From IMG/VR virus record IMGVR_UViG_3300042387_002331: a stretch of DNA of 64,000 bases; one strand, 5' to 3'. Position 1 is the first letter of the stretch. Every line of letters starts with the position of its first letter. This DNA comes from a virus. This document shows, piece after piece, positions 1 to 57,442 of this stretch. Both the position numbers and the translations under genes were made by a program. The notes beneath the pieces are model-generated. The model saw only the letters and a program-made list of their open reading frames with translations, did no database searches and was not told where the DNA came from.

Positions 1-607
1 GAAACATACTCGCTCGGTTAAAGCAGCTGCTCGTTATTTAAATTGCTCATACCAGCACCTTAAACCGTTTATGAAAGCTTACAAGGACGAAGCTACAGGC
101 ATGTCCTTGTTTGACCTACATAAAAACCAATCAGGTAAAGGTATTCCAAAATTTATGAGCAATTCTCCCTTTGGAAGAAAAATGCCTGCAATTGAGGACA
201 TTGTCAATGGAAGAGAAGACCCATCTTCATTTTCCCCAGATAAACTAAAATTTAAGTTAATTGAAGGAGGATATTTAATTGAACAATGCTATTGGTGTGG
301 GTTTGATGAAAAACGAGAAGCAGATGGTAAAATACCCCTTATCATGTTCTTTAAAGACAGTAACAAACACAACTATAGGGATGGAAACTGTCAATTATCG
401 TGCTATAATTGTTATTTTCTGCGCTTAGGAAACGTGTTTACTGAACGTGATATGGAGTCATTAGAAGGTCATCAAACAATTTATAAAACGACTGAAATGG
501 TTGATTTTCAATTAGACGATTATCAACAAAAACGTTTAAAAGAAATAGGTTTATGGGATGGTAAGGTTGATGATGATCCATATTCTTTAGTTTCAAGAAA
601 AAAATAA
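1..607 (+). CDS. HNH-like zinc-binding endonuclease-family protein (5' end outside window)
   Basis: Frame is open upstream of ATG 71 (KHTRSVKAAARYLNCSYQHLKPF). C-terminal CYWC...NYRDGNCQLSCYNC is a degenerate HNH/Zn pattern. Confidence 0.55.
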   Translation, partial: KHTRSVKAAARYLNCSYQHLKPFMKAYKDEATGMSLFDLHKNQSGKGIPKFMSNSPFGRKMPAIEDIVNGREDPSSFSPDKLKFKLIEGGYLIEQCYWCGFDEKREADGKIPLIMFFKDSNKHNYRDGNCQLSCYNCYFLRLGNVFTERDMESLEGHQTIYKTTEMVDFQLDDYQQKRLKEIGLWDGKVDDDPYSLVSRKK

Positions 608-33254: not shown

Positions 33255-33263
33255 ATATTTATA
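33255..33263 (+). promoter_or_regulatory. late promoter motif ATATKTATA (representative copy)
   Basis: Also at 607, 2821, 3455, 4264, 8395, 36051, 38667, 55391, 58668, 63121; mostly a short distance upstream of structural/late genes or tRNAs. Confidence 0.65.
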
Positions 33264-40243: not shown

Positions 40244-43200
40244 ATGGCTGCAGAAATTACACAGATAGATGCACAAGATTTTATATTTCAAACATATGGA
40301 GGAAACGATATTTCGTTAATTTCTTCTACTGAAATAGATACTACTTTAACTACTGGAAGTTATATTGAATTATTTATATATGATAATAATCAAAATATAC
40401 TTTTTGAAGATTATAATTTTTCAGAATATACTATCCTTAATAATGGACAATCAGCCGGAAACAATAATTCTATTTCTCAAATAGAAGTTGACCCTGAAAA
40501 AATTCTTATTGATAATGGGTTTGATCAAGGAGAATATATTACATATTTTAATTTCTTTAATAAACAAATAGGTTCTGAACTTCAACAGTTATATATTTCT
40601 GAAATATCATCTGATAGAACTGAACTTAGGTTAGATAGTACTTCTTTAACAGATATTGATTTAGTTGAACAAACAAATAATTTTATTCAACAACGAGAAA
40701 ATAGCTCATATTTTGTAGATTTTTATCTTAACTTTGGAACCAACTCATTAACCCTAGCTAATAACATTCAATTAGATGACTCAGATCCTAATAATGTTTC
40801 TATTTTAATTAAATTATATGAATCTCTTCCTGAACAATTTGATTTAAATTCTCAATTATGGGTAGTAACTTCTTTAGATAATTCTTTAGCATATCAAGTA
40901 GCATTTGAGGATCTTCCTATTATTATTACTGATACTATTCCTATAAAAGGACCTAATTTTAATTTAGACTTAAAAGATCAAGTAAACAATTCAACAGTAG
41001 CTTTAAATTATACTTCTTTAACTACTACTACTTTAACTAGTTCTTTTAATCAATTAAGTAGTTTACTAGAAGAAAAAGAAATTGATATTAACATAGACTA
41101 TACAGACTTTAATAATTTTATCCACTTTAGTTCAGCTCAAACTAGATTAGAAAATTTTTATTATAAAGTATCCCTTCTTGAAAATTACTCAGCATCTATA
41201 GCTACTTTAAATAATACAATAAATAACGATCCAAATGTTAGTATTGCTATATATGAAGCATATATAAACAATATTATAACTAATTTCGACGGTTATGAAT
41301 ATTATTTATATTACTCAAGTGGTTCATGGGCTTGGCCTAAATCAACTTCACAACCTCCTTATCAGTTATATTTAACCGGTAGTACCCAAGTACTAAATTG
41401 GTTTGGTAGTGTTGATGAAACTTCCCCATTCTATGGTGGTATTTTACTTTCAGCATCTATATACGATGATCTTAATAAAGATTATTTATATTATGTAATA
41501 CCTGAATATTTAAGAGACGATCCATCAAACAATCAATATAAATTATTTGTTGATATGGTGGGTCAATTTTATGATAATATTTGGATTTACTATAAAGATG
41601 TTACTGAAAAATATAATGCTGATAACCGTTTAGAATATGGTATTTCAAAAGATATAGTAGCAGATGCTATTCGTGATTTTGGAATTAAACTATACCAAAA
41701 TAATTTTTCAATACAGGATTTATATACTGCATTTATAGGTTTAACTCCTGAAGGTGGTTTATTTCCCTTCCCTAATATTACAGGTTCACTTCCAACTCCA
41801 AGCGGATTTGAATATATTGATACCTTAATATCTGCTTCTAACGATTATATACCGTTAGACGATGTAAATAAATCGCTATATAAACGCATTTATCATAACT
41901 TGCCGTACCTGCTTAAATCAAAAGGTACCCTACCTGGTCTGCGCACGTTAATAACTTCTTATGGTATTCCTGATACTGTATTAAGAATTAATGAATATGG
42001 TGGAAAAGATAAAATCAACTCAAATGATTGGGATTATTGGCAAGATACATTTAATTATGCTTTTTATACAACAGGAAGTAATCATATTTCTTCTTCTTGG
42101 AAAGTAAGTATTGATTGGAACTCTCCGAACAATGTTCCTTCTACACTAGAATTTAGATTTAAAACAGAAGGTTTACCAACATCATCTATCCCATATTCTC
42201 AAAGTTTATGGTATAATGATAATTTTTCATCCATAGTACTCCAATATACTGGATCAGGATATTCCTCAGGTTCTTATTCAGGTTCAATTATAGATCCATA
42301 TTACCAATATGCAAATTTAATTTTCTACCCAGATGCTGTAAATTTCCCTAATTCAACAGCTAGCATATATTTACCATTTTTTGATGGTGGATGGTGGTCT
42401 ACAATGGTAACTAGAAACGGGGATGATTTTACTTTATATGCAGGTAATAACGTATATGAAGGAGGAGATAATGGAACCCTATTAGGTTTTTATACTTCTT
42501 CATTCATAAATGAAGATTCAACAGCCTGGCTTACAGGAAATATTTCTACTTTTGCTAATTCTAATACAGCAATTGCTGGGGGAACTTATGATTCATTCTC
42601 TGGATCTTTACAAGAAATTAGATACTATACAACAGTACTAAGTGAAAGTGTATTTAAGGATTATGTAATGAATCCTTATTCGATTGAAGGAAATTCATTA
42701 AATTCTTCTCCAAATGAATTAGCTTTTAGAGCATCTTTAGGAGGTGAATTATATACTGGATCGGTTTCGATTCACCCTAAAGTAACAGGATCATGGACTA
42801 CAACAAGTTCATTTCTCCCTTCTTTAGGAGGAAATACTTTTTATATTCATGATATACCAACATTTAATCCTAATACAGAATATTTCTTTATAGATCAACC
42901 TATAATTGGTATTAAAAATGCTATTTCTGATAAAATTAGAGTAGAAGATAATACAATTCCTTCTGGAGATACATTATCTGCTTTTAGATCATTATCCCAA
43001 AATGTAGAAATTAGTCAAAGCTACACAGCAAATACTAATTTACTTGAAGTAGCATTTTCACCCCAAGATGAAATCAATGATGATATCATGGGTCAAATTG
43101 GATATTTTAACATTGGAGAATATATTGGTGACCCAAGATTTAGATCATCATCAGCATTATCTTATCCTGAGTTAGATATTTTACGAAATGATTACTTTGA

Positions 43201-46200
43201 AAAATATACAAAAAATTATGATTTAAATGATTTTATTCGTTTAATCAAATTCTTTGATAACTCATTATTCAAAATGATTAAAGATTTTGTACCTGCACGT
43301 ACAAGTCTTGCCTCGGGTATTGTAATCAAACAGTCTATACTTGAAAGAAACAGATACCCTGAACCACAAGTAGATAACTATTCAACAATAGCATATACTA
43401 CTAGTGGATCTAATAATAATGTTCCTTTTACATTTCAAAATATTATAGTTTCTGGAACTTTAACCCCAAGTTGGAATACTTACCACCCAGGAACTGTAGA
43501 AAATTTTAGTGGAGGTCCTGCAGGTGTGTTTAACCCATATAATGGTGTTTTAACTTCTCCTTATGGAGCAAATGGTATTGGACCTAATAACATATACTTT
43601 TTAACTCAAAGTTGGTCCGAAAGTATTATTACTCCCTCTGGCTCTGTAGTTATGCTACATAGTACTCAAGATGAGTTTTATAATGGTGAATTTAGTGGAT
43701 CAAATTTAATAGTAACTACTCAAAGCTTAGCCCAATCATACCCATTACAAAATGTATCTTTACCTTATCAACAAGTTCTCTATTTTCCAACTTTATCAGG
43801 CTCAGTTCTTCCTTTAAATGAAATTGATGAAGCTATATTTTTTGGTAATTTTATAAATCCTGTAACATCTCCTCAAAATGGGGAAATGATGATTTTTATT
43901 GATTATGAAACATTTACGGTTCCATTCCCTGGATCTGAATATGCTGCTACATATTTTAAAATAGCTAAAATAGATTCATTAGGAAATAATAACAGTAATG
44001 TTTTAGGACAACTTGATAAAATTTTAATTTATAATTCATCTACATCACAATATATAGAATATGATTTAGATATCCTTAATGAATATCCAAGTTATTATCT
44101 ATATAAAGTTAATCCTACAACATATGGAAATTTTCCATTTGTTGCAGCTGATAATAAAATTTTAGATTATACTGTTTCTGCTTCTATAACAATTCCTGAA
44201 ATTATACCTGGAACAACTGTTTATCCTTTTTTACTTACAGCTAGCATTAACCCTTTAAACTACTATGATTCTTCCTCAGGAAATACTAATTTTGGATATA
44301 CACCAAATACTCCATTAAATTTTACAGCAAGTTTCCTAGCTCAAACTTCTGTAGGTATAGCTACTTTAAACTTAAATTTCCAACAAATCATCCCAGGATC
44401 TATAGGATCAGGTACAGTAACTAGTCAAACATTTACTATTACAACAACACCAACTACTTATACTATTTCAGGATCATTTTATCCTGTACAAGGAAGTTCT
44501 TACTATTCTTGGGGTTTTATACCTTTTGGAAATCCCGTTACTATAACAAATGCTGAATTTTTAATTACCCAGAGTAGAAATATAAATTCTCCAAGCAGTG
44601 TTTCTAATATTGTAGAACCTTATATTACAGAACCTAATTACTATTATAGTAGTTATAATCCTATAATGAATAATATTGAAGAAGCACGATTAAATTCAAT
44701 ATATGAAGATATAGATTACTCAACTAATATTTTAACTCCGGTTAATTTTAATTTATTAATTAGTGGAAGTGCTCTTAAAGCAGCTGTTCAAGATTCAAAT
44801 TATTCCTCTAAACGAGTAACTTTACCTCGTTATGATGGTGTAAAATCAACTTCACAACAATTAAATGTTTGGACACCTGGTGATACTGGAACTTATGGTA
44901 AACTACCAACAATAGATAGTTTAAAAAACATGGTTGCCTACTGTGATTCTATTTCAGGATGGCCTTCTGAAAAAATGAATGCCTCAGCAATTCACGTTTT
45001 ATATTTAATCAAGTCTGATGGAACTGTTGTTATCCCAAATACCTCAGAAAACTCATTAGCTGATATTAAAGGAACATTTGAGTCTGGAGAAAGAATGTTA
45101 ATAAATACTCAAACAATTTCCGCAGGAGGAACTCAATATAGAAATGTTATTAGAGGTGGTACTCGTATTGAGCCTATTTTATATACTCAGTTTGGTAGTT
45201 CTCCAAATGTTACATGGAATACTACAATGAGTTTTGAAGATATAGTTTTAACTGCTTCTGGTTCTGTAGGAAACTACACAGCATTGTATAATACTACTGG
45301 ATCCTCAATTCAAGTTTTTGGGAATATTCCAACTAAAGTTTCATTTAGTAATGCAGTATATGGAAATACTTATTTGTCAAATAATGGATATCAAGTTACA
45401 ACAGGTCCAATAGGAGATGGTGTTAGTTTATATTTAGATGCTGAGGTAAAATATGTAATAACCCAACCCTTTGGAAGTACTATTAACTATACAATAGAAC
45501 TTTTTATATATAAAAATGGAAATCCCTTATTAGATTCCACTGGAAACCCTATAAGCATTCTTCATACCCCATCATATAACTCCCCAGGAAATAATGGTAT
45601 TATAGATATTACTGGGGTTCTATTATCTAATACTACACTTAATATTAATGATATATATACAGTTTATATAAAATGGATTGGTAATGTTGCTGGAGGATCA
45701 TTTTTTGTATTACCAAATTCAGTTTTTAAAATATATCAATCTCCTATAGCTACTTCCCCTGTTACCTCTTCAGGAGCTAATTCAATTTGGGGATGGCCAA
45801 ATAAAACAACTTATCCAAATGTTATAACTTCTTCTGAAGCAACATTAGTAAACTTATATGGTGATCCTAATGTTAAAATGGTTGATATAACAGGATCCGG
45901 CTTTAACCCAGTTACATTACCTTGGTCAATAAAATATGCAGATGAATTTAGATTTGAAGGTAGAGAAGATTATGTTTATCAAGTAGGAAAAATATTTGGC
46001 CCTGCTGAAAGTGGATCAGATCGCATTACCCAAACAGGATCTATTGAAGTCCATTTTAATTATGCTCTTCCAGTTTCAGCTTCTTCTACAGTATTTAACT
46101 TAGATCACTTTTTAATTAGACGATATGTTGATGATGCTAGTTTAATTTTGATGGAAGGATATAGACCTACAAATGCCAGTGGTCCATATATAGTAAGACC

Positions 46201-46276
46201 TGAATATGTAGTTCCTGAACTAAACAAATCAGTAGATCAATTTATTTTAGATCTTACGCAGAAAGGGTTGATTTAA
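40244..46276 (+). CDS. large baseplate/tail structural protein (2010 aa)
   Basis: YLLKSKGT..GLRTLI (gp7/P2-gpI-like motif), LamG-like FSGSLQEIRYY, long beta-rich SGS/TGS-rich C-terminal half. Confidence 0.7.
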   Translation: MAAEITQIDAQDFIFQTYGGNDISLISSTEIDTTLTTGSYIELFIYDNNQNILFEDYNFSEYTILNNGQSAGNNNSISQIEVDPEKILIDNGFDQGEYITYFNFFNKQIGSELQQLYISEISSDRTELRLDSTSLTDIDLVEQTNNFIQQRENSSYFVDFYLNFGTNSLTLANNIQLDDSDPNNVSILIKLYESLPEQFDLNSQLWVVTSLDNSLAYQVAFEDLPIIITDTIPIKGPNFNLDLKDQVNNSTVALNYTSLTTTTLTSSFNQLSSLLEEKEIDINIDYTDFNNFIHFSSAQTRLENFYYKVSLLENYSASIATLNNTINNDPNVSIAIYEAYINNIITNFDGYEYYLYYSSGSWAWPKSTSQPPYQLYLTGSTQVLNWFGSVDETSPFYGGILLSASIYDDLNKDYLYYVIPEYLRDDPSNNQYKLFVDMVGQFYDNIWIYYKDVTEKYNADNRLEYGISKDIVADAIRDFGIKLYQNNFSIQDLYTAFIGLTPEGGLFPFPNITGSLPTPSGFEYIDTLISASNDYIPLDDVNKSLYKRIYHNLPYLLKSKGTLPGLRTLITSYGIPDTVLRINEYGGKDKINSNDWDYWQDTFNYAFYTTGSNHISSSWKVSIDWNSPNNVPSTLEFRFKTEGLPTSSIPYSQSLWYNDNFSSIVLQYTGSGYSSGSYSGSIIDPYYQYANLIFYPDAVNFPNSTASIYLPFFDGGWWSTMVTRNGDDFTLYAGNNVYEGGDNGTLLGFYTSSFINEDSTAWLTGNISTFANSNTAIAGGTYDSFSGSLQEIRYYTTVLSESVFKDYVMNPYSIEGNSLNSSPNELAFRASLGGELYTGSVSIHPKVTGSWTTTSSFLPSLGGNTFYIHDIPTFNPNTEYFFIDQPIIGIKNAISDKIRVEDNTIPSGDTLSAFRSLSQNVEISQSYTANTNLLEVAFSPQDEINDDIMGQIGYFNIGEYIGDPRFRSSSALSYPELDILRNDYFEKYTKNYDLNDFIRLIKFFDNSLFKMIKDFVPARTSLASGIVIKQSILERNRYPEPQVDNYSTIAYTTSGSNNNVPFTFQNIIVSGTLTPSWNTYHPGTVENFSGGPAGVFNPYNGVLTSPYGANGIGPNNIYFLTQSWSESIITPSGSVVMLHSTQDEFYNGEFSGSNLIVTTQSLAQSYPLQNVSLPYQQVLYFPTLSGSVLPLNEIDEAIFFGNFINPVTSPQNGEMMIFIDYETFTVPFPGSEYAATYFKIAKIDSLGNNNSNVLGQLDKILIYNSSTSQYIEYDLDILNEYPSYYLYKVNPTTYGNFPFVAADNKILDYTVSASITIPEIIPGTTVYPFLLTASINPLNYYDSSSGNTNFGYTPNTPLNFTASFLAQTSVGIATLNLNFQQIIPGSIGSGTVTSQTFTITTTPTTYTISGSFYPVQGSSYYSWGFIPFGNPVTITNAEFLITQSRNINSPSSVSNIVEPYITEPNYYYSSYNPIMNNIEEARLNSIYEDIDYSTNILTPVNFNLLISGSALKAAVQDSNYSSKRVTLPRYDGVKSTSQQLNVWTPGDTGTYGKLPTIDSLKNMVAYCDSISGWPSEKMNASAIHVLYLIKSDGTVVIPNTSENSLADIKGTFESGERMLINTQTISAGGTQYRNVIRGGTRIEPILYTQFGSSPNVTWNTTMSFEDIVLTASGSVGNYTALYNTTGSSIQVFGNIPTKVSFSNAVYGNTYLSNNGYQVTTGPIGDGVSLYLDAEVKYVITQPFGSTINYTIELFIYKNGNPLLDSTGNPISILHTPSYNSPGNNGIIDITGVLLSNTTLNINDIYTVYIKWIGNVAGGSFFVLPNSVFKIYQSPIATSPVTSSGANSIWGWPNKTTYPNVITSSEATLVNLYGDPNVKMVDITGSGFNPVTLPWSIKYADEFRFEGREDYVYQVGKIFGPAESGSDRITQTGSIEVHFNYALPVSASSTVFNLDHFLIRRYVDDASLILMEGYRPTNASGPYIVRPEYVVPELNKSVDQFILDLTQKGLI

Positions 46277-50379: not shown

Positions 50380-51149
50380 AAAAACGTAACATTAAGCACG
50401 TTAATAACCGTATCCTTGAAATCTCAGAAGATGCTCAACAAATTACTCTTCCAGATTCTAGATACTACAGACGAAATGGTGAATATTACCCATCAATCAC
50501 TCACGTGTTAGGTTCTTACCCAAAAGGTAAACATTTTGAAGAATGGTTAAAAAACATGGGTCGCTCAGCTGATTACATTGTTAGAAAAGCTGGTGAAGAT
50601 GGAACTAAAGTACACGAAATGATTGAAGAGTATTTAGAAGGTAAAGAAATGAACTTTTTAAATGAAGCTGGATACCCACAATACGATCCTAACATTTGGC
50701 AAATGTTTTTACGTTTTGTTGATTTTTGGGAAACTTACAAACCTGAATTAATTGACCAAGAAATTCATCTCTATTCAGATACCCTTAAAGTAGCAGGTAC
50801 AACAGATTTAGTTTGTAGAATTGATAACTCTTTATGGATTATTGACCATAAAACATCAAATCACATCCAGACAACTTATGAATTACAAGCAGCAGTTTAT
50901 GCTCATTGTTATGAAGAATGTTTTGGTGTTAAACCTGATAAAACTGGTATTCTATGGTTAAAATCTTCTAAACGTAAAGGTTCAAAAGATAAAATGCAAG
51001 GTAAAGGATGGGAAATGATTTTACCATCTCGCACACAAGAAGAAAATATTGAAATTTTTAAAACAGTAAAACGTTTATTTGACCTAGAAAACCCAAATGA
51101 AGCGCCTATATTTACTGAATTTAAAACGAGTGTTAGGAAAGAGATGTAA
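50376..51149 (+). CDS. PD-(D/E)XK exonuclease
   Basis: YPSITHVL, GTKVH, AGTTDLV, IIDHKTS, LQAAVYA. Confidence 0.85.
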   Translation: MKKRNIKHVNNRILEISEDAQQITLPDSRYYRRNGEYYPSITHVLGSYPKGKHFEEWLKNMGRSADYIVRKAGEDGTKVHEMIEEYLEGKEMNFLNEAGYPQYDPNIWQMFLRFVDFWETYKPELIDQEIHLYSDTLKVAGTTDLVCRIDNSLWIIDHKTSNHIQTTYELQAAVYAHCYEECFGVKPDKTGILWLKSSKRKGSKDKMQGKGWEMILPSRTQEENIEIFKTVKRLFDLENPNEAPIFTEFKTSVRKEM

Positions 51150-51160
51150 TATGTATGATT

Positions 51161-51916
51161 ATGATAAGTCTAGTTCAATTATTGAAGGAGGTACAAGGAA
51201 ATCCTAAAGCTATATTTTTAGCTGGCCCTGCAGGAAGTGGAAAATCTTATATATCCTCTAAACTTATCCCTAATACATTTACAGTTATCAATTCAGATGA
51301 CACTTACGAAGAGTTATTAAAAGCAAATGGGCTTGGTTTAAAACAAAAGAATTTTACTCCCGATCAATTATCTCAAGCATCTAAACTACAAGCTCAAGCT
51401 AGAAAAGTTACTCAAGATAAATTTGAAAAACTAATTGCAAATAAAGACCACGTTATTTTAGATGGTACTGGTGGTGCTTTAGCTCCTCTTACTAAGAAAA
51501 AACAACAACTAGAAGATTTAGGGTATGAAACGTTGATGTTAATGATCTATGTTTCTCCCTTAGTTTCACTTGAACGTAACCAACAACGTGACAGAAGCCT
51601 AATGCCTGGAATTGTATTACGTAATTGGAGAGATGTAAATAAAAATATTGGAACATATCAACAAGTGTTTGGTAATAATTTTATCTTATTAAACAACAAT
51701 CCAAAAGACGCTAAACAAGAATTTAACACTGATTTACTTGAACCGTTCCTTCAAGCATCTACTGCTATAGGTAAACCTAAAACTCCTGAAGAACAAGCAA
51801 AATCAGATGCTAAAAAAGCTCAATTGAACAAAGATATTGAATCTATGGTTAATCAATTACCTGAATTTGATACCCTAGATACAGCTAAAAATAAAATAGA
51901 TGAATTCGTTAGTTAA
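51161..51916 (+). CDS. zeta-toxin-like P-loop kinase with LLKE leader
   Basis: AGPAGSGKS, INSDD, ILDGTG, ERNQQRDR; leader MISLVQLLKE. Confidence 0.7.
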   Translation: MISLVQLLKEVQGNPKAIFLAGPAGSGKSYISSKLIPNTFTVINSDDTYEELLKANGLGLKQKNFTPDQLSQASKLQAQARKVTQDKFEKLIANKDHVILDGTGGALAPLTKKKQQLEDLGYETLMLMIYVSPLVSLERNQQRDRSLMPGIVLRNWRDVNKNIGTYQQVFGNNFILLNNNPKDAKQEFNTDLLEPFLQASTAIGKPKTPEEQAKSDAKKAQLNKDIESMVNQLPEFDTLDTAKNKIDEFVS

Positions 51917-53666
51917 AATACTTATACAGCCTATATTAGAGGCAGAAGGGCAAAAAGGTATTGCTCTTATTCCTGGTGGATTTAAACCACCTACAGTAGG
52001 TCACTTTGCATTGGTTGATGAAGTAGCTAAAAACCCTAACTTTGAAAAAGTAATCGTTTTAATTGGCCATAAAAACCGTGATGGTGTTTCTAAAGAGGAA
52101 AGTAAAGCAATATGGGATATTTACAAAAAATACTTACCATCTAACGTTGAAATTAAAATAGCAGAAAATTCATCCCCTATTTCGGATGTTGCCTCTATGA
52201 TTAAAAATACCCCAGATACATTTTTCTACCCAGTAGTAGGTATCCGAGGTGAAATGGATTTAGGTGATTTAAAACGTTTTGATAGTTTAAAAGGAAAATA
52301 CCCTAACTTTAAAACTATTGTTATCCGATCAGAAAGTAGTGATGATAGGGTTAGTGGTACAAATACACGTGCTGCTTTAATTGGTGGTGAAAAAGAAAGA
52401 TTTCAATCATATCTTCCAACTCAACTTTCACAAGAAGAAAAAGATAAAGTTTGGTCTATTTTAACAAAAACCCCTATTCAAGAATTTGTTACACAATCTG
52501 AATTAGATGATGTAGAAAAAATAGCTGATGAATGGTTTGAGGATTATGGAATAGATGTTCAATTCACTAAACATTTTATAGAACGAGTAAATGATGAACG
52601 CAATGGAAAACCTATTTCTGCTGAAGAATTGGAAGATCTATTTACCCAAACAGCAGAAAAATACGGAGAAAAATTAGCTAACCTCCCAGATGATTATCAA
52701 GCGGTATTACTTAAATTACGTAACGATATTAACTTACCATTTGCTCTAAACTATGATGAGAAAAATGATGAGATGGATTTAGTTGCTAAAACTGTAATGC
52801 GTAAGAAAAATTTTCAAACATCTAACCCGAAATTAGCTTTACAGGAAATGTATGTTGAACCGAGTGAACATGATTACCCTAAACTAATCAAATCACTTAC
52901 TGAATTTATGTTAAATAAAGGCATGAATATTCGTCCTTTACCTAAAGTAAAATTTGTAAATGATGATGTTGAAAATGCTAGAAATTTCTTCGGTAAAACA
53001 GCATACTATGACCCGAATAACCGCGTTATAGTACTTTACACAATGGATCGTCATCCAAAAGACATTATGCGTTCATATGCGCATGAAATGATTCACCATA
53101 TGCAGAATTGTGAGGATCGTTTAGGTAATATTACAACTCAAAACACAAACGAAGAAGGTGATTTACCTGAAATAGAAAGAGAAGCATATGAAAAAGGTAA
53201 TATGATGTTTAGAGGATGGACAGATACTATTACTGAAGGTGTTATTAAAGAAGAAGATGATACCGATGTACTTTCATACCCTAGCACATTTAAACCAGGT
53301 GTAAATATTTTAGTTATTTTCAAAGAAAATGAAAACTATCCAAATTTAAAACCATATTTTGACGAATATGGGTATGGTTTCTATTACCCAAAAGATAAAA
53401 CAATAATCATTGATGGTGAAACTTTTGTAGATTCAGACTTGGATTTTAATGATTTAAAATTTGTTGAAGCACACGAAGTAACACATTTACTTTTAGGACA
53501 TACAGGACCATATTCTGAAGATGATGAAATGGATGCTGATTTAGGGGCATATGTTTTATTAAAAGATAAAGGTTTACCTACTGACAAGTTAGTAAAAGAA
53601 TTTAAAAATAGACATGGGGTTGATTTTAGTGAAGAACTACTTGAACGTGTAAAAGACCTTTTGTAA
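51900..53666 (+). CDS. multidomain protein: cytidyltransferase-like NTase + BECR-like domain + two HExxH zinc-peptidase domains
   Basis: PGGFKPPTVGH and VSGT (HIGH-type NTase); FTKHFIERVND...AKTVMRK; AHEMIHH...EREAY; AHEVTH...EMDAD. Confidence 0.65.
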   Translation: MNSLVKILIQPILEAEGQKGIALIPGGFKPPTVGHFALVDEVAKNPNFEKVIVLIGHKNRDGVSKEESKAIWDIYKKYLPSNVEIKIAENSSPISDVASMIKNTPDTFFYPVVGIRGEMDLGDLKRFDSLKGKYPNFKTIVIRSESSDDRVSGTNTRAALIGGEKERFQSYLPTQLSQEEKDKVWSILTKTPIQEFVTQSELDDVEKIADEWFEDYGIDVQFTKHFIERVNDERNGKPISAEELEDLFTQTAEKYGEKLANLPDDYQAVLLKLRNDINLPFALNYDEKNDEMDLVAKTVMRKKNFQTSNPKLALQEMYVEPSEHDYPKLIKSLTEFMLNKGMNIRPLPKVKFVNDDVENARNFFGKTAYYDPNNRVIVLYTMDRHPKDIMRSYAHEMIHHMQNCEDRLGNITTQNTNEEGDLPEIEREAYEKGNMMFRGWTDTITEGVIKEEDDTDVLSYPSTFKPGVNILVIFKENENYPNLKPYFDEYGYGFYYPKDKTIIIDGETFVDSDLDFNDLKFVEAHEVTHLLLGHTGPYSEDDEMDADLGAYVLLKDKGLPTDKLVKEFKNRHGVDFSEELLERVKDLL

Positions 53667-53693: not shown

Positions 53694-54218
53694 ATGCCAA
53701 ATTTATTAGATTTATACGAAGCAATTAAACCAAAATATATTATTTTTTGTGATATGGATGGTGTATTAGTTGACTTTGACAAAGGATATAAAGATTTAAC
53801 TGGAATTTCTACTAGCCATGCTAATACACAAGGTAGAGATGAATTTTGGGATCTATTTAAACGAAGTTTAGAAGAAAAAGGAATGTCCGAATACGAATAT
53901 TGGGCAAATTTAGATTGGCAACCCGGAGGAAAAGAACTTTGGAGCTATATCAAAAAATATAACCCATACATTCTAACAGCTCCTTCATTAAACCCAGAAT
54001 CCAGAGAAGCAAAAAACGATTGGGTTCAACGTTTAGACAATATGAAAAAAATCTACTTTAAACCTGCTAAATTTAAATCTGATTTTTCTGGAAAAAATCG
54101 TATACTTATAGACGATAGAAAAGACACTATCGACAGATGGAATGCAGCAGGAGGAATAGGAATTTTACATACATCAGCAGAGGATACTATCAAACAATTA
54201 CAAAATTTAGGTCTATAA
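53694..54218 (+). CDS. HAD-family 5'(3')-nucleotidase
   Basis: CDMDGVLVDF, ILTAP, K, LIDDR motifs. Confidence 0.85.
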   Translation: MPNLLDLYEAIKPKYIIFCDMDGVLVDFDKGYKDLTGISTSHANTQGRDEFWDLFKRSLEEKGMSEYEYWANLDWQPGGKELWSYIKKYNPYILTAPSLNPESREAKNDWVQRLDNMKKIYFKPAKFKSDFSGKNRILIDDRKDTIDRWNAAGGIGILHTSAEDTIKQLQNLGL

Positions 54219-56039: not shown

Positions 56040-56210
56040 ATGAACACAACAGAACTTTTAGACGCAATTAAAGAACAAGTTGTTATTATGGAAGCTGAGC
56101 ATGCTAAAACATCAAAAGCAGCTCGTGGACGTGCACGTAGTGCAGCCAATAACATCAAAAAACTTGCAGCTGAATTCAAAAAGACATCAACTGCAGAAGA
56201 CAAGGCTTAA
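56040..56210 (+). CDS. histone-H1-like (Hc1-family) small basic protein (56 aa, not in ORF track)
   Basis: MNTTELLDAIKEQVVIMEAEHAKTSKAARGRARSAANNIKKLAAEFKKTSTAEDKA; resembles the KAA..RARK...LK..FRK.S Hc1-type pattern. Confidence 0.6.
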   Translation: MNTTELLDAIKEQVVIMEAEHAKTSKAARGRARSAANNIKKLAAEFKKTSTAEDKA

Positions 56211-56975: not shown

Positions 56976-57442
56976 TGACACGCGAAGAACTTGTAAATAG
57001 ACTCAAAGCTTTATCAAAGCAGGTGTACTCAAATATGACAGTAACACCTGAAGAGGCAGTTCAATATGATGAACTGACAAAGTTTCCTGAGCTTAAAAAA
57101 GTTATCGTTGATTTATTAACCCCAGAATATGATAGCTTTTTAGCTTCAATTGATTGGGTTGCACCACGTCCTACTACATTCCGTATTAACTTACAAAATG
57201 GTCAAATGTTTTATTTGATCTATGGTAAACGTAGTTGGATTGCACAAGTAGAAGGTAAAAAATATTACCTTTTAAATTTACCTGAAGAAGAAAGAGCAGC
57301 ACAGTCTATAGCAAATATTTTACGTTATGGAGCAAAAGAAGAAGCTGGAACAGAAGGTGGAGAACTTGATTTAGGAACTGAACCAACCCCACCAGCTGAA
57401 GAAACACCAGCAGAAACTCCAGCAGAAACACCTGAAGCATAA
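56975..57442 (+). CDS. hypothetical protein with acidic Pro-rich tail
   Basis: ETPAETPAETPEA tail. Confidence 0.65.
   Translation: MTREELVNRLKALSKQVYSNMTVTPEEAVQYDELTKFPELKKVIVDLLTPEYDSFLASIDWVAPRPTTFRINLQNGQMFYLIYGKRSWIAQVEGKKYYLLNLPEEERAAQSIANILRYGAKEEAGTEGGELDLGTEPTPPAEETPAETPAETPEA

Follow-up and report, generated by a model that had tools for sequence, protein, structure and literature searches.

The open reading frame (ORF) at 51900-53666 (+) of a 64,000-nucleotide stretch of viral DNA (IMG/VR record IMGVR_UViG_3300042387_002331; the whole stretch is called the window below) encodes P0001, a protein of 588 amino acids (aa) whose domain joints fall on the tripeptide (I/L)-x-E. P0001 is probably a capsid-addressed cargo polyprotein that is cut into separate injected enzymes, and the gain and loss of modules at such joints in thousands of related phage proteins suggest a plug-in system for loading and releasing such enzymes. 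The window corresponds to C1:25709-89708, minus strand, of a phage genome that is 166,116 bp long and has terminal repeats; the phage is T4-like and of freshwater origin, and its host probably belongs to the Bacteroidota. The P0001 family combines two known ideas, the capsid targeting sequence (CTS) and gp21 processing of phage T4 on the one hand and polyvalent proteins on the other. A literature search found no description of head-protease motifs at polyvalent-protein joints, nor of CTS-type leaders in this phage group.

T4 gp21 cleaves C-terminal to the Glu of L/I-X-E, and the propeptides of the T4 internal proteins (IPs) are 10-19 residues long, with positions 4 and 7 serving targeting and positions 8 and 10 processing (PMC9026906). 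In the mechanism proposed here, the 14-residue amphipathic leader of P0001 would carry the precursor into the prohead scaffolding core, like a T4 CTS, and a gp21-type S77 serine protease would cut after the Glu of (I/L)-x-E at the leader and in each unstructured linker. Cleavage would release a HIGH-type nucleotidyltransferase, a BECR-fold RNase and two zincin-like peptidases. Ejected with the DNA, the released enzymes would act early in the next host, with nucleotide or NAD-type metabolites, RNA and proteins as predicted targets, in take-over or counter-defence. Since a joint needs only a short linker with hydrophobic-x-Glu, modules could be inserted, deleted, duplicated or split into solo leader genes, and such easy exchange would explain the very large combinatorial family described below.

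From its N-terminus, P0001 consists of a leader, a HIGH-type nucleotidyltransferase, a BECR-fold RNase-like domain, a first zincin (MP1), a GVIKE linker and a second HExxH domain (MP2). An earlier prediction, made by a model from the letters of the window, had proposed this four-domain layout, and the ORF and every peptide it quoted are present. The features are as follows (AF2, AlphaFold2; pLDDT, predicted local distance difference test).

51900..51941, plus strand: leader, residues 1-14 (MNSLVKILIQPILE), a CTS-like amphipathic helix ending in I-L-E (AF2 helix 3-15).
51942..52484, plus strand: HIGH-signature nucleotidyltransferase, residues 15-195, ending in TPIQE (Foldseek; phrog_3041 cytidyltransferase).
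52476..52484, plus strand: junction I-Q-E, residues 193-195 (pLDDT <50 at 191-195; PBECR cassette present or absent directly after the Glu).
52485..52847, plus strand: BECR-fold (PBECR-like) RNase-like domain, residues 196-316, ending in LALQE (AF2, VIA, invariant residues).
52839..52847, plus strand: junction L-Q-E, residues 314-316 (pLDDT <50 at 315-323).
52848..53237, plus strand: MP1, the hub HExxH zincin, residues 317-446, with HEMIH at 395-399, ending in TITE (weak PF20573 DUF6782; invariant catalytic residues).
53229..53252, plus strand: double junction ITE/GVIKE, residues 444-451 (pLDDT <50 at 445-464; cassettes inserted here in relatives).
53253..53666, plus strand: MP2, the second HExxH domain (M78/ImmA-like), residues 452-588, with HEVTH at 525-529 (phrog_87 metallo-protease, weak PF06114).

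The nucleotidyltransferase domain has the NMNAT/NaMNAT/PPAT fold (Foldseek probability 1.0, E 6e-6, target template modelling score up to 0.77) and carries the signature motifs TVGH (32-35) and SGTNTR (152-157), consistent with a Rossmann-like fold with H/TxGH and ISxTxxR-type motifs. Its scores stayed below the equivalog thresholds for PPAT (CoaD) and NadD (TIGR01510, 22.8 bits versus 103.3; NF000841, 16.1 versus 197). The second domain, folded alone, reached an AF2 pLDDT of 92.6. Its best VIA matches were Escherichia coli RelE (Z 6.7) and T4 RegB (Z 6.5, 116 residues aligned), followed by HigB, YafQ, ParE and CdiA-CT; the top rows were nearly all BECR toxins, all with Z <8. A Foldseek search against the PDB gave nothing at E <= 0.001 for this domain (best E 0.07), and the Pfam PBECR models did not match it. 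Because the Z values are moderate and Foldseek found nothing below E 0.07, the label used here is BECR-like, as for the PBECR domains described by Iyer et al. 2017, and proven membership is not claimed. An Asp, the His of FTKHF and the Thr of AKTVMRK are invariant in 33 diverse sequences, and H225 and T298 are candidate catalytic residues.

The BECR-like domain also occurs as a stand-alone copy in phage Melnitz and as a C-terminal copy in phiM12. In the Methylophilales phage Melnitz (L002 3905-4354), the stand-alone domain begins with MKTFLQFEQ.., provided that its first codon, TTG, encodes Met. This start contains no [IL]xE, and the C-terminus, ..KLSFK, lacks Glu like that of other terminal modules. 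The start resembles that of the T4 CTS (MKTYQEFIAE).

In MP1, the H, E and H of the zincin motif and a downstream E are invariant across 35 sequences. Both peptidase domains fell short of the Pfam gathering cut-offs (MP2 with PF06114, 13.1 bits versus 22; MP1 with PF20573, 17.7 versus 27), and an MP1 profile run against the PDB sequences gave only chance matches to DARPins. The C-terminus of MP2 in P0001 has no Glu site.

The [IL]xE sites of P0001 end at residues 14, 89, 195, 316, 335, 424, 446, 451 and 582. Domain limits were obtained independently of the motif from PHROG, phmmer and AF2. PHROG matches cover residues 16-199 (cytidyltransferase), 197-311 and 312-414 (both unknown) and 469-554 (metallo-protease), while the ends of the phmmer stretches, from a search of 1.84 billion representatives, pile up at 195/196, 316-322 and 445-452. 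The AF2 model (40-row colinear alignment, mean pLDDT 75) drops below pLDDT 50 at 191-195, 315-323, 414-419, 445-464 and 475-487, and its three inter-domain linkers (191-195, 315-323 and 445-464) hold the sites at 193-195, 314-316, 444-446 and 449-451; the leader folds as a helix of its own (3-15) that precedes strand 1. The 34 linker residues, 5.8% of the chain, thus hold four of the nine sites (binomial estimate ~1e-3). The original prediction that the domain junctions fall on (I/L)xE sites therefore agrees with all three sets of limits, and the structural check that it proposed bears it out, the AF2 linkers coinciding with the sites.

A word-indexed search returned 3173 relatives; the best 120 are 465-877 aa long and are 74-92% identical to P0001 over only parts of it. 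A whole-protein phmmer search at E <= 0.001 found 4228 proteins, each representing a cluster at 50% identity. When 22 length classes were aligned with MAFFT, close homologues were found to differ by whole cassettes that start after one [IL]xE and end in their own [IL]xE (e.g. GGIEE, PLNE, KLLE, LALQE). The BECR cassette is present in some (..TPIQE-FVTQ...LALQE-MYAEP.., the hyphen marking the joint) and absent from others (..TPLNE-MYAEP..), and a 23-residue mini-cassette takes its place in some homologues (..TPIEE-GTCGY...GGIEE-IYAEP..). After MP1 (..TDTLTE), homologues carry GVIKE, GVLSE or a zinc ribbon ending in ..PLNE; other modules found there are an 80-residue insert ending in ..KLLE, an alternative HExxH domain and another copy of MP1. 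Several phages have the downstream 5'-nucleotidase (NT5C) fused to MP2 via ..(P/S)LNE-N.., and the cultured Flavobacterium phage immuto (vB_FspM_immuto) has a 907-aa homologue with the joints ..TLAE, ..SIE, ..RLPE and ..VMAE. MP1 was found at any position in proteins of 300-1400 aa, and weak ART-PolyVal matches occur in relatives. The prediction that orthologues would gain and lose domains exactly at these sites is thus borne out.

For family statistics, the domain ends given by hidden Markov models were projected onto each of 147 representatives that are <=50% identical to each other. Automatic breakpoints from the ends of high-scoring segment pairs in an all-versus-all BLAST comparison were dropped, as these ends are imprecise by a few residues and repeats within the proteins disturb the chaining. 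An [IL]xE lies within a few residues of the C-boundary of MP1 in 103 of 111 internal copies (background 0.146, p ~8e-76) versus none of the 29 C-terminal copies (Fisher 4e-23). The motif also marks the N-boundary of MP1 (87/112, p ~2e-56), the C-boundary of the nucleotidyltransferase (101/134, p ~4e-56) and both boundaries of the BECR domain (C-boundary, 23/36, p ~2e-11; N-boundary, 21/38, p ~3e-10). Terminal MP1 copies are of a ..NWEDSIKN subtype; when copies of this subtype are internal, they gain a fresh site 4-8 residues downstream (PINE, ILKE, ELNE, YLKE), so that the contrast between internal and terminal copies goes beyond phylogeny alone. Where a junction lacks [IL]xE, P3 is mostly V, M or F. 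The pooled junction logo reads (S/T)-(L/I)-(N/Q/E/K/T)-E, and its P1' varies (N, G, I, S, K...).

Similar segmentation had been predicted for the gene at 58680, which indeed holds 10 sites versus 3.2 expected. Its orthologues are zincin-free and gain cassettes flanked by ..MLEE and ..YLNE. Cassette joints with [IL]xE in proteins that have no zincin point to a protease that acts in trans.

Three linker motifs recur between modules of the relatives (P0121-P0267): K(S/A)APYGSGYxxLNE, KDPFGLNxFARELxxGLEE and the zinc ribbon DRIECDxCGW...HDNTPxxLNE. The APYGSGY motif is also found inside the window ORF 59357-59830. These motifs may serve as an internal address, as a docking site or as a protease exosite.

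The leader of P0001 has 14 residues with L4, I7 and I12-L13-E14, in keeping with the description of T4 CTS propeptides in PMC9026906. It is conserved in close homologues, and distant ones have other leaders ending in LxE, or none. Short leaders that end in the motif also open other genes of the window.

Gene start 55420: motif-ending leader MDNFDLKKFLKE.
Gene start 58680, plus strand: leader MERLRKLIKE.
Gene start 59357, plus strand: leader MTRLEKLINE.
Gene start 59832, plus strand: leader MDNFDLKKYLAE, 12 residues.
Gene start 60266, plus strand: leader MIKLIDILKE.
Gene start 60784, plus strand: leader MIKLLDILNE.
Gene start 61358, plus strand: leader MIKLVDILKE.

The exact T4-CTS register was defined by a hydrophobic residue at both position 4 and position 7, with I/L at 8 and E at 10. 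In T4, an Asp at CTS position 10 prevents processing and leaves targeting intact. Genome-wide, 6 of ~230 genes have the register, whereas shuffles give 0.35 (at most 4); five of these genes are among the six adjacent genes at 58680-61942, the one in that run outside the register being 59832.

The same bodies are found behind such leaders and behind internal joints. The body of 60784 (SKQVGPLYHWT...) is fused in other phages behind ..SLNE, ..ITE, ..LEE and ..NITE of four different upstream modules, with P0174, P0233, P0259 and P0130 as the proteins that carry it after ..SLNE, and the residues after the Glu are identical in the solo (MIKLLDILNE-SKQVG) and fused (..SLNE-SKQVG) forms. The LYE of the solo nucleotidase (MPNLLDLYE-AIKPKY) aligns with the LNE of the fused one (..PLNE-NIDSKY). 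Further, P0125 is a solo MP1+MP2 gene directly after an exonuclease gene and has the 10-residue leader MVKLVSLINE; comparison of MVKLVSLINE-IYAEPS with ..LALQE-MYVEPS places the leader at the LALQE junction of P0001. Judged from these alignments, solo and fused modules share the residue following the Glu, as a shared mature N-terminus predicts.

Other kinds of leader occur as well. A second class, ..(F/L)(K/L)RMQ(K/M/L)LAG(L/V)I(N/T)E, opens the window gene at 63148-63429 and, outside the window, those at C1:102806-103264 and C1:110728-111222. The putative scaffold protein ends in a similar peptide (..AFLRMQKLAGII, stop), and leaders of this class could be scaffold-mimicking capsid addresses. 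A small ORF of ~56 aa at ~56040-56210, in the only sizeable gap of the gene island around P0001, has a similar leader (MNTTELLDAIKE). An N-terminal piece of 33-50 residues (MDILEKFLYSIAYKFPKGYPDM...ILLLE) is common to otherwise unrelated bodies, namely at 57442-58668 in the window and at loci L005, L014, L021, L035, L039, L043, L049 and L068 of related phages, and looks like a longer swappable propeptide. Two further leader genes (MDNFDLKKYLAE.. and MKLTDILRE..) at C1:105938-109214, outside the window, adjoin a GroEL-like chaperonin gene, and a small gene beside the latter is a candidate co-chaperonin.

The genome of P0001 encodes a head protease of the required type. This Peptidase_S77 (T4 gp21-type) protein scores 95.5 bits with PF03420 (cut-off 27, E 2e-28) and matches phrog_207 at E 1e-49; S77 proteases are also present in four related contigs and in phage immuto. 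It belongs to a head block just past the right end of the window, in the order terminase, portal, three core proteins, protease, scaffold and major capsid protein. The putative scaffold holds 19 [IL]xE sites versus 10.5 expected and two small core proteins hold 13 versus 4.7 and 6 versus 1.9, while three sites at the N-terminus of the major capsid protein are conserved down to immuto at 61% identity.

Several observations weigh against capsid cargo as the fate of P0001. Its two zincins appear intact and could cut the joints themselves, and a deoxyribonucleotidase or an NMNAT-like enzyme is no obvious capsid cargo. Primase, exonuclease and kinase genes stand directly upstream of the P0001 gene. 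Of 125 representatives that begin with the nucleotidyltransferase, 34 start directly at strand 1 and are leaderless, yet they keep the junction sites; in one divergent leaderless lineage, the upstream kinase is leaderless too. The N-terminal leader is therefore not the sole address, or such forms are processed elsewhere. There is no overall enrichment of [IL]xE in P0001 (9 sites versus 8.4 expected; 8.3 +/- 2.5 in shuffles; ~1 site per 65 residues), so that the signal lies only in the positions of the sites. No exact copy of the late-type motif ATAT(T/G)TATAA was found between 38667 and 63121, the only copies being at 33255, 36051, 38667 and 63121, which lends no support to late expression of P0001. 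The motif recurs with one mismatch at 51149 and 58668, but such copies are no more frequent than chance predicts; the same holds for all hits of the scans for sigma-70 promoters and for the T4 late box TATAAATA, and none of these hits is informative on timing. No terminator was found between 38667 and the P0001 gene, in a scan that performed at chance level. Finally, the literature search found no cleavage, virion or ejection data for the P0001 phage or any relative (immuto, phiM12-type).

The zincins provide the first alternative, in which P0001 is a self-processing polyvalent protein. MP1, perhaps with MP2, would cut the joints in cis or in trans and make a head protease unnecessary. Cutting could take place in the cytoplasm or the head, or it could wait until the protein has reached the next cell, as Iyer et al. 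2017 suggested for polyvalent proteins that carry a metallopeptidase (MPTase). Autoprocessing by the MPTase is the model published for such proteins (PMC5512222). MP1 is the hub of the whole family and has the invariant HExxH and downstream Glu, the best-conserved sites flank it (..LNE-NASYS.., ..FRNWTDSLNE), and leaderless members retain their junction sites. Against this reading, zincins usually select on P1', whereas in this family P3 (Leu/Ile) and P1 (Glu) are conserved and P1' varies (N, G, I, S, K, E...), which is the published signature of gp21. Further, the motif ends the leaders of zincin-free solo proteins and flanks the cassettes of the zincin-free 58680 orthologues, and it is enriched in scaffold and core proteins, which are substrates of the head protease. 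With P3 and P1 fixed, P1' variable and the motif in zincin-free proteins, a serine protease acting in trans is favoured over the zincins, and self-processing is considered unlikely.

Equally improbable is an uncleaved, multi-domain cytoplasmic enzyme of the replication or nucleotide module, with hydrophobic-x-Glu as a tolerated linker or a preferred breakpoint for shuffling. Fusion and fission are common among functionally linked genes. The neighbours of P0001 (NT5C, Pol-beta-like N-domain) show both, all relatives keep the polyprotein gene in synteny with genes for a primase, an exonuclease, a kinase and a 5'-nucleotidase, and the lack of an exact late motif near the gene would suit an enzyme of this kind. 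A passive linker fails to explain why the Glu is absent from 29/29 C-terminal copies of MP1 and present once anything follows, and why 10-aa solo leaders end in the same motif in the T4-CTS register. As for a recombination breakpoint, the conserved element comprises only three residues with variable codons and context, which is too short to drive homologous recombination.

A further alternative, slightly less probable still, is a self-cleaving pro-effector. MP1 would here be a Glu-specific peptidase for hydrophobic-x-Glu that releases the modules only post-injection, as a timed activation, and the likeness to the gp21 motif would reflect one site used by two proteases, or convergence. If true, this would be a DNA-phage counterpart of RNA-virus polyprotein processing and a new zincin specificity. 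Chance, that is, [IL]xE being common in a Glu/Leu/Ile-rich proteome and domain ends being placed on sites post hoc, would fit the total count of sites but is refuted by the coincidence of structural and homology boundaries with the sites (family boundary p 1e-10 to 1e-75) and can be set aside.

Capsid cargo released by the head protease, the reading preferred here, has its closest precedent in T4 IPI, IPII, IPIII and Alt (PMC9026906, PMC3012670). These proteins share with P0001 a short propeptide (10-19 residues in T4) ending in (L/I)-x-E with hydrophobic targeting positions, and a phage S77 protease. The T4 cargo is likewise diverse and fast-evolving and includes an ADP-ribosyltransferase, and the CTS has been proposed as a loading route for new proteins, possibly an evolutionary device for loading various proteins (PMC9026906). 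However, each T4 cargo protein is a single unit that is cut once, near its N-terminus, whereas P0001 has several enzymes per chain and an internal site at every joint. P0001 also differs in having no sequence homology to the T4 IPs, in its probable Bacteroidota host and in being known from sequence alone. T4 gp22, gp67 and gp68 are closer in one respect, as gp21 cuts them at multiple internal L/I-x-E sites and the homologous region here is motif-enriched; however, their fragments are discarded scaffold peptides, whereas the pieces between the sites of P0001 are folded enzymes.

Polyvalent proteins (Iyer, Burroughs, Anand, de Souza, Aravind 2017; PMC5512222) resemble P0001 in joining disparate domains in one chain around a zincin-like MPTase hub, in their PBECR-type RNase and ART-PolyVal modules, and in their predicted delivery with the DNA, for which an explicit analogy to viral polyproteins was drawn. 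Release is there predicted to be due to the embedded MPTase, and no cleavage motif is named in those passages of PMC5512222 that were searched, whereas P0001-type joints carry the T4 head-protease motif and a CTS-like leader. Nor did term searches of that paper find HIGH-type nucleotidyltransferase and NT5C modules, and the Pfam PBECR and MPTase models score below threshold on P0001.

The ejection or inner-body proteins of the giant phages phiKZ, 201phi2-1 and SPN3US (PMC5694885, PMC7411985, PMC10052503) are also head cargo cut after the Glu of a three-residue motif by a diverged gp21 homologue. However, their motif, although it ends in Glu, differs from L/I-x-E, and they are mostly separate propeptide genes and not enzyme polyproteins with swappable cassettes. 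At the level of single domains, RegB, RelE/HigB/YafQ (BECR) and the NMNAT/NaMNAT/PPAT enzymes match P0001 domains in fold and in the expected signature residues, but the P0001 domains have no family-level sequence membership.

If the joints are head-protease sites, the family would reveal the way in which enzymes get into the capsids of T4-like phages of aquatic Bacteroidota. One address leader and a three-residue joint would suffice, and a new enzyme would become cargo by a single in-frame insertion. The 2017 polyvalent-protein idea would gain a concrete, testable processing mechanism, and a simple sequence rule would predict mature cargo proteins from metagenomes. The NMNAT-like transferases, RegB/RelE-like RNases, zincins, zeta-like kinases and ART-like domains would become candidate effectors of take-over or counter-defence in the first minute of infection. 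Such a system would also offer hints from nature on how to design phage capsids for protein delivery.

The gene island of P0001 sits between the tail/baseplate and head modules, and megablast found no cultured-phage match to 20 kb of the region. In the relatives compared, the SegE, primase, exonuclease and kinase genes always precede the polyprotein gene. The immediate neighbours of P0001 are as follows.

51155..51916, plus strand: zeta-toxin-like P-loop kinase with the leader MIMISLVQLLKE (PF06414, E 4e-12), upstream of P0001.
53694..54218, plus strand: 5'-deoxyribonucleotidase (HAD/NT5C-like) with the leader MPNLLDLYE (phrog_2643), downstream of P0001.

The kinase and P0001 genes share 17 nucleotides (51900-51916), and the kinase occupies the same position beside the polyprotein gene in distant relatives. 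Its C-terminus, ..KIDE-FVS (stop), recalls the start of the BECR cassette, ..IQE-FVTQ, and to judge by this likeness may be the leftover of a former fusion. A fusion of kinase and polyprotein by frameshifting was considered for leaderless relatives in which the genes overlap by 4-8 nucleotides and was rejected, as only ordinary overlapping start and stop codons were found. Within the tail/baseplate block of the window, an ORF of 2010 aa at 40244-46276 is flanked by ORFs of 223-337 aa that have no PHROG match, and probably encodes a fibre protein.

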